Source: Curvularia clavata (taxonomy: Eukaryota). Taken from it: 64,000 nt of DNA. Each line of letters begins with the position of its first letter. Position 1 is the stretch's first letter. The stretch lies in assembly GCA_023920165.1 (NCBI GenBank), contig CP089279.1, positions 1,612,001-1,676,000 on the forward strand, written 5' to 3'. Both the position numbers and the translations under genes were made by a program. Under the pieces are notes generated by a model, which saw only the letters and a list, made by a program, of their open reading frames with translations, did no database searches and was not told where the DNA came from. Below, piece after piece: positions 41,896-45,171 of this stretch.

Positions 41896-44282
41896 TATGA
41901 TTATGATTAAGTGTTTTGTTTTGTTTTGTTTTGGGTTCGACCTGGTGAGAAGCGAGCGAGTGGATTGTAGAACGAAGGTAGAGAGACGTTAACGAGTGGA
42001 AGTCAATGATGTGAACTTGGGGTAGAAAAATGGGCATGCCAGACGGGAAGCCCAGCTTTTTAATAATAGTCCTGGGCTCGTATTAGTCCTCTAAAACGGT
42101 AGGGAACTGCACCCAATGACAGTGGTGGCCCTTTGGCGCTCGTATGTCCCCACTGGAAGTGCTTCTGGCCGGCGCTAGACGTCTGCCAACCGCTTACGGT
42201 ACCTGAAAATGCATGTGTACAAGGCTCAAGCCTGGTCGCACGGACACGAGCATTGCGAGGAAGGACTGTTTTGTTCGGAAATTTTACGTTGGCACGGTTC
42301 AGCCAAGCTAAACTCGGAAGGCCGGCAGCGTCCATTTGATACAAGAGGCTTATGTCTAACGTTTAAGCTTACGTGCGGCGCGGGGAATGGCAGATGTTGT
42401 GGCGTTGCGGCTGACGGTACCTAATGGGAGTCGCCATGGCGCCACCTTATGTCGAGCAGCTCACGGACAGCCATGCCGTTTTCCTGCCGTGTTGGACAAG
42501 ATCGAGTTTCTGTGGAAGGTGTGGAGATGAAGTGGAGATGGGCTCCGTCCAATTAGCCCTATGAAATTAAGCACTCGCTTAGCGCCGAATTGGCTGGACG
42601 TACCCTGACTCGACCCCTGATTTTCTTCTTATCCAACAGCAAAGCTTTGGGGGCGGAGGCTTGATAGACAAGCAGGCCAACCTAGACGAGGGCGCGACGG
42701 ACGGGCCGGTGCTGACAGGCTGGTCCAAGGAAGATGACGAGTGACGTCGATAGAGTGCTTGGATCAGGCCGGAAGCGGAACCTCGTGCTGACGCCACTAG
42801 AGCTTCTTTGACCTAACACCCTTCTGTCTGCCCCTAATCGACAAGAATCCGTAGTATTTTGAAAGACCAGGCAATGCATTTTCCAAATACAGTTTCTGTC
42901 GCACCGCTTTTTCGATTGCTGTTCAAAGCACCAAACGGATCGTCGACTCGTGCTCGATTGTAACAGTCATTTCTCTCCTTTGAGTATATTGGCATGTGCA
43001 AGCATAACTCAGCCTGAAAAAAAAAACGAAACATCTTAATTCCGTTCAGGCCGCCAGGCTGATAGGTGCCCAAGTCGGAGTACAGATCATCAAAGCAAGA
43101 GGCAAATGATCTACGTTAGGGCGCGCTAGCATTTCCCAACTCCTTGTTTTTGCAGCCGCAAGTAGTGTATGAATGCTGGGTGCTTGGTCTGTCCAGAACA
43201 GAAAAAAAAATCGCAATCTACATTAGATTCATACACGTCCCTTGCGTTCACGAAGGAATCCATGTCTCTACAGAGTCGATATCATCATGTCCTTGGATGT
43301 CTTTCCCCATGCCAAATGACTTGATGCACGTACATCCGTGTGGCCCTTAAAGCCATTCACGATTGTATTGAGACATCTGCTCCAGATGAAGCAGAGGTAC
43401 TATCGAGTGAAGAATGTTGACACACTGCTGCTACGGCGGAAGCGGCTTGCATATTTACTAGTTGCTTACAGCACTACCTATCCGGGGCCTCACAGGTACC
43501 AAAGCAGGGTCAGGGGTAAACTTTCTCCCCTTTCAACAGGCTGTAACCAATCGCAGTAGGCTAAATTACACGGTTGCACATGGAGCACATGGAGCACATG
43601 ACAACTCTTAAAAAATAAAAGTAGAGTACAGAGCACAATAGCGAAGACTCTCAACAAGATTTGAATGGTCTTACATGCAGAATATTGTGCTCTGGATTTG
43701 ACTTGGGGGCAGCTACTACTTCGCAAGTAATTTTCGATGCTGTTTTGTCCGATGCACCGAGTGGTTTTTGGGTCTTGCATGTGATCGAACTTGGCCAATT
43801 ATTTTTTATCAGCACTAGCTCGAGTTGCACTCTCACTATACATTGCCAATTGTGAAATATTCTTTGACATTATCTGGTACCTAGGGTTTGCCGCGCCCAT
43901 TCGTACAACAAATTAGCAAACTTTAGCTTATTGAGTAGAAGCAGGCTTCTACCCGTTAATGTTTGCGACAGATCCCTGATTGTAAGGAAATCCAAGTGAG
44001 GACTATAGAATCAACTTCAATCGCACTTGAAGTAACACACAACCAATCAAGCGAGATGCTAGGCGGCTAGAGATCTATGCCGGACGCCCCATGGATAGGA
44101 ACTGTCGTAGTTGTATGCAGTTTGAACGAAGGCTCCCCGACCATCCACACTATTTACTTTTCTTTGCGTATGGGTCCCGGTGTATCATTGCGCTTCTTGT
44201 ACCATGCAAACCAAGCAACAGCCAACGTAATGATTATCACCAGTGCCGTGACTGCCCCTGTCGAAGCGGTTTTGTGAGCGAG

Positions 44283-45171
44283 TCAAGCGGCTGACTCTGA
44301 CTTGCCGTCTAGTGGAGGTATTTGCTGGGTGAGGTAGGATTCGAGATGATCGATTTCGTCTGGATCAGCACTGTGAACGAGGCCCCTGGTTTGTTTGTTA
44401 GACAGTCTTCTTCTAGTGGGTATCTAAAGACGTACTTGTAAGTCCTGAAATCAACCTTGTATCCATGCTTCTCAAGCTCGTCGGCACTTAGCTTTCCCCA
44501 CTTATGGGCAACCACTTGGTCTGCATCCCCATGACCCATGAAGATGGGTGTGTTTTGGTTTGGGTTGTTGGTTGGAATCATGTCCTTGAATCTCTTTTGG
44601 AGGAGAAGGTAGCAGCTCAGGCCAAAAATGCCTCCAAGCTGGTCCTTGTATGTCACGCCTGACAGCAACGACATCGCACCGCCCTGCGAGAAACCTCCGA
44701 TAACTATGCGGTTCGCAGGTATGCCTTTGGCAACCTCCTGGTCGATGAGCGAATGGAAGTATTTCTGGGACTCGATGATGCCTGTTTCATCCTCCTCCCG
44801 TCCGTCTAGATTGCCGAGAGACTTGATGTCGTACCATCCTGGCATCCGCATGCCCATGTTCTAAGTCGTGTATCAGCGCTCTTGCTACATGTATTTGCGC
44901 CACGGCAGCAGCGGAGGGTTGGTGAATAGGTACGAACCAGGGTGATTGGGATGTTTGGAGCATGCGGAAAGATGAACGAGACCTCTTCAAACTTGCTCCG
45001 TCTACGCCAGTTCTCGGCGAGGAATATCCTGCTCTTGTTAGGGTCTACAGAACCGCGTCACTGTACGCATTCTTACCAGCCTGCTCCGCTGTCTCCGAGT
45101 CCATGGGCGACAATAACAGTAGCAGTGTGTCGCTTGAGTGCAGGTACAATAATGGGGGCTTTGTAAGCCAT
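44283..45171 (-). CDS. APT1: Acyl-protein thioesterase 1 / lysophospholipase, 4 exons (a longer isoform ending at 44154 is predicted; see findings)
   Basis: HTATVIVAHGLGDSGAGW, FIFPHAP, MPGWYDI, GGFSQG (Ser), HGDADQVV (Asp), GLVHS (His). Confidence 0.92.

Follow-up and report, generated by a model that had tools for sequence, protein, structure and literature searches.

A UGA stop with CU after it is sufficient for translational readthrough in Ustilago maydis reporters and in HeLa cells, with about 1% readthrough for LDHB (PMC4207609; this and the other papers are cited here from excerpts of their text). UGA-CU(A) readthrough produces cryptic peroxisomal isoforms with a peroxisomal targeting signal of type 1 (PTS1) from U. 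maydis Tpi1, Pgk1, Rpe1 and Art1 and from human LDHB and MDH1 (PMC4207609), and has been reviewed as a source of such isoforms (PMC9549241). In Drosophila, eight readthrough extensions contain predicted transmembrane domains, five of the eight with negative PhyloCSF values (PMC3840789, Table 2). Here we describe the gene of the acyl-protein thioesterase APT1 on the minus strand of a 64,000-nucleotide stretch of the Curvularia clavata genome (the window; coordinates refer to the whole stretch). Its first stop codon is TGA followed by CTC, and the frame that runs on from it encodes a predicted transmembrane helix and a basic tail. We consider it quite probable that this is a conserved cryptic tail anchor on fungal APT1, reached most likely by UGA-CU readthrough; one gene would probably make a free and a membrane-tethered enzyme by way of a leaky stop and not by splicing.

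The locus resembles the cryptic PTS1 cases in its UGA-CU stop, in a short in-frame extension with a targeting signal, in the joint conservation of both, and in a predicted minor isoform of a soluble enzyme (PMC4207609). It differs in the signal, which is a transmembrane helix with a basic tail, and in the enzyme, a thioesterase/lysophospholipase. The excerpted supplements of that paper, including its list of U. maydis TGA-CT genes, contain no named thioesterase or phospholipase, many entries being given as "uncharacterized". The addition of a predicted membrane helix by readthrough is shared with the Drosophila cases; the fly helices, however, are predictions, the tests reported in the excerpts being for nuclear signals (PMC3840789), whereas several fungal classes retain the APT1 helix. 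As a class, the mechanism is known. Searches of the open literature (most subscription papers and bioRxiv supplements lay outside this scope) found no account of readthrough on APT1 or of a tail-anchored form of it, and the excerpts of PMC11447717 and PMC4503680 held nothing on the APT1 gene. The known functional fungal readthrough adds a peroxisomal tripeptide, and APT1 suggests that the same leaky stop can add a membrane anchor. Standard gene models would miss the tail-anchored isoform, and some models in databases seem to arrive at the tail in a different way.

Human APT1 and APT2 (LYPLA1/2) are themselves palmitoylated, at Cys2, and this anchors them to membranes (PMC8453015). The window protein has the same fold and catalytic motifs as the human enzymes, but no counterpart of the palmitoylated Cys2 near its N-terminus; no cysteine occurs in the first 12 residues of the window protein or of five fungal relatives. 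TmPlb1 of Talaromyces marneffei, a 243-residue protein that lacks a signal peptide, groups with cytoplasmic APT1-type phospholipases (PMC5148023). It is likened to the window APT1 by description and not by alignment, and the excerpts of that paper do not mention an anchored isoform for it.

We propose that most ribosomes would stop at the TGA and yield the soluble APT1 of 237 amino acids, and that a minority, a few percent if the rate follows that of other genes, would decode the UGA-CU stop as an amino acid, add 42 codons and yield an enzyme of about 280 amino acids. In the extended form, the enzyme would be followed by a linker that is short and flexible, a single transmembrane helix at the C-terminus and a basic tail. 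It would insert post-translationally, with the catalytic domain in the cytosol, and could act on membrane substrates such as S-acylated proteins and lysophospholipids. Because fungal APT1 has no N-terminal cysteine like the human Cys2, the encoded anchor could replace the palmitoyl anchor of human APT1/2, which offers an answer to the question of how the fungal enzyme reaches its membrane substrates.

By hydropathy, the extended protein has the layout of a tail-anchored protein, namely one helix near the C-terminus, a short tail and no N-terminal hydrophobic segment, and its most hydrophobic window is the helix of the extension. FALDH variants, which differ in membrane address, arise by splicing. 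In the pair FALDH-ER/FALDH-PO, alternative C-termini direct the protein to its membrane by the hydrophobicity of the helix and the charge of the tail (PMC5450235), as may be the case here; both FALDH forms are anchored, whereas the APT1 switch would be between soluble and anchored forms and would act at termination. The grand average of hydropathy (GRAVY) of tail anchors in the yeast endoplasmic reticulum (ER) exceeds 1.75; in mammalian cells, a hydrophobic helix can be sent to peroxisomes instead when its tail is highly charged (PMC5450235). Since the helix at the window exceeds the yeast ER limit, its hydropathy of 2.16 together with a tail charge of +4 favours the ER/endomembranes as the destination, with peroxisomes second and mitochondria third. 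A mitochondrial or peroxisomal address had been suggested when the sequence was read by itself; this address is uncertain, the peroxisome being retained in second place and mitochondria moving to third. The extension ends in KEK and not in an SKL-type tripeptide, and no such ending is common among the tails of the relatives. A structure model of a read-through homolog from an intronless locus, L007 (22 sequences, mean pLDDT 88), has an intact hydrolase core, a low-confidence linker (240-257) and a separate long helix (259-292); the model fits a free anchor and does not imply insertion.

Conservation of the stop context and the tail

A metagenome scan gave 80 loci, which together with the window and L002, a second family member of the Curvularia genome, made 82 sequences. 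The last exon was found by pattern in 72 of them, and 65 were left after removal of seven near-duplicates. A tail was defined as an in-frame extension of at most 70 amino acids, with a 17-residue hydropathy of at least 1.6, followed by two or more basic residues and by no more than 35 further residues. TGA-CT and a tail occurred together in 24 of the 65 distinct loci (window included), TGA-CT without an in-frame tail in two (L017 and L042), a tail without TGA-CT in one (L006, TGA-CGA), and neither in 38, many of which belong to bacteria, algae and other outsiders. A tail was therefore present in 24 of 26 TGA-CT loci versus one of 39 other loci. Within the filamentous-ascomycete-like subset (n = 35), the corresponding numbers were 24 with both, one with TGA-CT only, one with the tail only and nine with neither. 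Ten of the 82 sequences had no last exon found by pattern, and six were rechecked by hand: L029 has TGA-CTC and a tail, L037 is cut by the contig end, and the other four have no TGA-CT or tail.

The two other reading frames contained no tail in 50 tests. As a control, 214 open reading frame (ORF) ends of at least 150 codons, from 264 kb of the Curvularia genome and including non-genes and internal exons, were examined; TGACT was found at seven and a tail-like frame at four, and both were never found together. A TGACT context was also absent from the second stops (0/24). The codon after the stop was CTA in eight, CTG in seven, CTC in six, CTT in two and CGA in one of 24 loci, so that the third base after TGA-CT is free. 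In six Pleosporales-like loci, the proportions of synonymous and nonsynonymous differences in the helix core were 0.62 (pS) and 0.29 (pN), uncorrected and from pairs that are not independent, and identity at codon positions 1, 2 and 3 was 0.65, 0.78 and 0.45. By these measures the helix core has the pattern of coding sequence. The linker varies from 1 to 27 codons and is in frame in every tail locus, with L017 as the exception, and linker, single helix, basic residues and stop lie within 32-54 codons across classes. The intronless L007 retains TGA-CT and the tail.

These results bear on the simplest alternative, that the hydrophobic frame arose by chance in a T-rich 3' untranslated region (3'UTR) and is not translated for any purpose. 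Helix-like stretches are often encoded in 3'UTRs (PMC10364623), four of the 214 control ORF ends carry a tail-like frame, and two residue-changing variants fall inside the helix (see below). Frame-specific conservation, the linkage to TGA-CT, the codon-position pattern and repeated joint loss nevertheless largely refute this explanation, and we regard it as very improbable. Base shuffles yielded a helix-plus-tail frame in 0.15-2.5% of trials, with 0.3% of 2000 shuffles at the window. A Pfam search of the extension gave no match. A search with the last exon and the tail returned six soluble relatives and no annotated tail form, and a search with the Aspergillus tail region returned only itself, which indicates that the tail is too divergent for word searches.

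A maximum-likelihood tree was built from 36 loci together with 24 named proteins, and in it the tail loci were placed with references from Pleosporales, Dothideales-like fungi, Helotiales, Lecanoromycetes-like fungi, Eurotiales, Onygenales and Chaetothyriales. Judged from these placements, the layout extends over Dothideomycetes, Leotiomycetes and Eurotiomycetes as well as a lichen-fungus-like group. L009 (TGA-GCT), L023 (TAA), L071 (TAA), each of the five Sordariomycete-like loci and the basal L013 have neither motif nor tail. L009 is the sister of the tail-bearing L010 with a support of 100. On this tree, motif and tail would have been lost jointly at least four times, or three times with an origin after the Sordariomycete split.

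The minus strand of L098, also from the Curvularia genome, contains a 481-codon ORF that ends in TGA-CTG and is followed by a long, partly hydrophobic in-frame extension. It failed the tail criterion and is a possible further candidate for readthrough.

RNA at the locus and other possible sources of the extension

The sequence-only reading had taken the tail-anchored form to be the product of a regulated 48-nt GC-AG intron lying over the stop codon. The segment is present as described, with GCAAGT from 44305, CTCAC at 44278-44274 and a CAG ending at 44258, and it is in frame and contains the TGA. Its retention gives the protein of 237 amino acids ending in PPLDGKSESAA, and its removal would give a hypothetical product of 264 amino acids with the 19-residue helix and the basic tail. 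As had also been pointed out, the tail is in frame with the TGA, so that readthrough reaches the same anchor.

RNA was examined as assembled contigs of four of 24 listed runs, of which three (X6, X2 and X10) gave cover at the gene and one (X9) gave none. The contigs of each covered run splice three ordinary introns at the predicted borders, and no joint at 44305-44258 was found in any of the three covered runs, with the limit that contigs may drop rare forms. The X6 contig (depth 224) is unbroken from 44384 to 43866, and therefore the TGA, the tail and the second stop are part of the mature message, unspliced. The contigs of X2 and X10 (depth 5-8) are interrupted around 44247-44274, in the vicinity of the proposed acceptor. 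Letters of the intron are present at these ends, and a variant at 44246 adjoins the X10 break; we read the breaks as coverage gaps. Because contigs drop rare forms, minor splicing of the segment may occur.

The cryptic tail-anchored isoform itself is well supported by the conserved TGA-CT and tail frame, and the downstream hydrophobic frame exceeds chance and is conserved; production of the isoform by a regulated intron is not well supported. Donor, branch and acceptor that would skip the stop in frame were found in one of 25 tail loci, the window; four more had a weak donor and an acceptor without a branch. The GC donor is not kept in the closest relatives, and nothing was found for regulation. 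In L068, L031 and L074, the helix begins 1-3 codons after the stop and there is no usable donor. Relaxed in-frame stop-skipping signals occurred at five of the 214 control ORF ends, two with a G[TC]RAGT donor, so the signals at the window are not clearly above chance; the GC donor there coincides with Gly-Lys-Ser codons. That the anchored isoform is made mainly by excision of this intron in Curvularia draws some support from the good-looking donor, branch and acceptor, from a length that fits the real introns of the gene (48-77 nt), from the X2 and X10 breaks near the acceptor, and from database models in which a hydrophobic tail is joined near the same place, namely P0033 and P0127 of Aspergillus brasiliensis, P0143 of Aureobasidium pullulans and P0012 of Pseudogymnoascus. 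These are known as protein models only, and may be predictor bridges over the TGA or reflect real splicing in those fungi; the A. brasiliensis and Au. pullulans clusters also hold soluble forms. Taken together with the RNA contigs, this makes main production by the intron distinctly unlikely. TGA-CT and the reading frame are conserved and the splice signals are not, and for this reason readthrough is favoured over the GC-AG intron.

In the Leotiomycete models P0004, P0012 and P0136, APT1 is fused to a downstream PF02900 dioxygenase-like gene. These fusions are probably annotation joins of neighbouring genes.

Several points weigh against a conserved anchor made by readthrough. The tail criterion was fixed after the first loci had been seen. 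Fisher's test gave p values of 1.9e-14 and 1.4e-6, in which the kinship of the loci overstates their independence. The tree is of a single gene with weak deep support, and the taxon labels are best matches combined with this tree. The net charge of the tails among relatives ranges from 0 to +10, so that they point to no single organelle. Between X6 and the window there are five differences, all 3' of the stop and none in the coding exons, and two of them lie in the helix and change residues (Ala to Thr at 44246, Ala to Val at 44206), which indicates that the exact helix residues are loosely constrained. CUU-UGA-C is the shift site of bacterial RF2. L017 (L017:3416-3535) reads CTT TGA CTT around its stop, and its homologous helix is displaced by one base into the +1 frame; an error in the sequence, decay of the tail or a +1 shift at the stop could each account for this single locus. 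A stimulatory stem-loop 3' of the stop was considered and rejected, the z values of seven loci being -0.21, 2.82, 0.31, 0.12, 1.14, -2.53 and -0.26, with one of seven below -2. Finally, the evidence for readthrough at UGA-CU comes from U. maydis and HeLa cells and would have to carry over to a Dothideomycete.

Two further explanations accept an extended protein and differ on its origin or its purpose. Fungal A-to-I editing disfavours a G before the edited A. Editing of the TGA to TGG at some life stage has a precedent in the stop-loss editing of Fusarium (PMC13123824); on the other side, letter 44283 is unchanged in the RNA contigs, the Sordariomycete loci are those without the tail, and the conserved feature is the downstream CT of a readthrough motif. 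We consider editing extremely improbable. Alternatively, readthrough could occur and the hydrophobic tail could serve as a degron or dosage valve and not as a working anchor. In worms and human cells, BAG6 captures hydrophobic extensions encoded in 3'UTRs, and these are degraded (PMC10364623), and an editing-derived extension destabilises Dbf2 in Fusarium (PMC13123824). However, readthrough of a few percent would hardly alter dosage, the order of linker, helix, basic residues and stop is precise across classes, and N-terminal hydrophobic extensions in other fungi fit a need for membrane attachment. A degron is therefore unlikely, and the anchor made by UGA-CU readthrough is preferred.

Hydrophobic leads at the N-terminus in other fungi

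The search of database proteins was limited to at least 255 residues, and the homologs are known from protein models. In 60 of them there is an N-terminal lead of 30-140 residues, and 48 of the 60 have a hydrophobic segment there. Many are Fusarium, Trichoderma, Xylariales, Exophiala, Agaricomycete and Mortierellales proteins, in which another Met stands at the usual start. The hydrophobic extension stands before the usual Met in P0008-P0021 and P0025 (Fusarium), in P0023, P0027, P0030, P0039 and P0049 (Trichoderma), and in P0034, P0040, P0041, P0079, P0081 and P0048. The long Fusarium and Trichoderma homologs had been candidates for C-terminal tail forms and were rejected, as their extension is N-terminal instead. 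One Fusarium cluster contains both a 284-aa and a 233-aa model. On these models, the hydrophobic N-terminal extension is a possible second way of anchoring, through an upstream start.

An upstream ATG with a hydrophobic segment was found in none of 23 tail-type loci versus two of nine loci without a tail (L009 and L071; p 0.07). Three losses of the tail lie inside the tail-bearing clade; L009 and L071 have the upstream ATG and hydrophobic segment, and in L023 the open frame is hydrophobic but lacks an ATG. From these observations we tentatively suggest, as a rather doubtful possibility, that fungi broadly need a minor anchored APT1 and have repeatedly switched between a UGA-CU C-terminal anchor and an upstream-ATG N-terminal anchor. 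The C-terminal route would belong to Dothideo-, Leotio- and Eurotiomycetes and lichen-fungus-like loci and the N-terminal route to annotated Fusarium, Trichoderma, Xylariales, Exophiala, Agaricomycete and Mortierellales proteins. Against such switching, pyrimidine-rich leaders translate as hydrophobic, three tail loci have ATG-less frames of this kind, and none of five Sordariomycete-like loci has a hydrophobic lead. If it were true, leaky-stop membrane anchoring would be a general fungal isoform device, parallel to cryptic PTS1.

Two loci are of note for their 5' ends. About 110 bases upstream of the APT1 start of L023, the ATG-less hydrophobic frame is preceded by a GTAAGT donor-like site, and it may depend on an upstream exon or on a start codon other than AUG. 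L006 (L006:1037-1150 and its 5' end), the sole tail locus with TGA-CGA, carries in addition an upstream ATG whose lead is weakly hydrophobic, and is perhaps an intermediate state. In the window, the frame upstream of the ATG is closed at a distance of 12 codons, so that APT1 has no N-terminal extension.

Structure of the window gene and neighbouring features

The coordinates of the gene and its extension are collected in the table below. PF02230 (Abhydrolase_2) matched the window protein with 131 bits against a curated cut-off of 23. The GXSXG motif and the Ser-Asp-His triad appear as GFSQG, HGDAD and VHS, and the S, D and H columns are invariant in alignment A2, which excludes P0130, the product of an unrelated neighbouring gene that was in alignment A1. 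The best Protein Data Bank matches are human APT1, and in the protein tree the gene lies among annotated Pleosporales APT1, adjoining Exserohilum. By domain, motifs and tree, the gene is assigned as an APT1/LYPLA-type acyl-protein thioesterase, with a predicted depalmitoylase activity.

Features of the APT1 gene and its proposed readthrough extension in the window
Feature	Coordinates	Strand	Basis
Coding exon 1	45077..45171	-	ATG at 45171; exon joint in RNA contigs
Intron 1, GT-AG, 48 nt, spliced	45029..45076	-	joint in RNA contigs X6, X2, X10
Coding exon 2	44938..45028	-	gene model and RNA contigs
Intron 2, GT-AG, 77 nt, spliced	44861..44937	-	RNA contigs
Coding exon 3, GFSQG nucleophile motif and HGDAD	44436..44860	-	PF02230 E 5.5e-38; human APT1 structures E 1.6e-28
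Intron 3, GT-AG, 50 nt, spliced	44386..44435	-	RNA contigs
Coding exon 4 to first stop; catalytic His codon 44375; TGA 44285-44283	44283..44385	-	sequence
Proposed GC-AG intron, 48 nt	44258..44305	-	signals present here; not conserved; not seen spliced
Putative TGA-CT leaky-stop motif (TGA CTC G)	44281..44285	-	in 24/25 distinct tail-bearing loci; motif defined in PMC4207609
In-frame readthrough extension, 42 codons	44157..44282	-	sequence; inside mRNA (X6 contig to 43866)
Predicted transmembrane helix, 19 aa, GRAVY 2.16	44199..44255	-	hydropathy; codon-position pattern
Basic C-terminal tail, 14 aa, net charge +4	44157..44198	-	sequence
Second stop TAA	44154..44156	-	sequence

The Curvularia genome contains a second, more distant phospholipase/carboxylesterase member, L002 (G000:C1:1257134-1257517), with 40% identity; it ends in TGA-TAC and has no tail. 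A 583-codon open frame (window:45377-47128, plus strand) lies head to head with APT1, the two starts being about 380 bases apart. From its motifs, we take it to be related to HhH-GPD DNA glycosylases.

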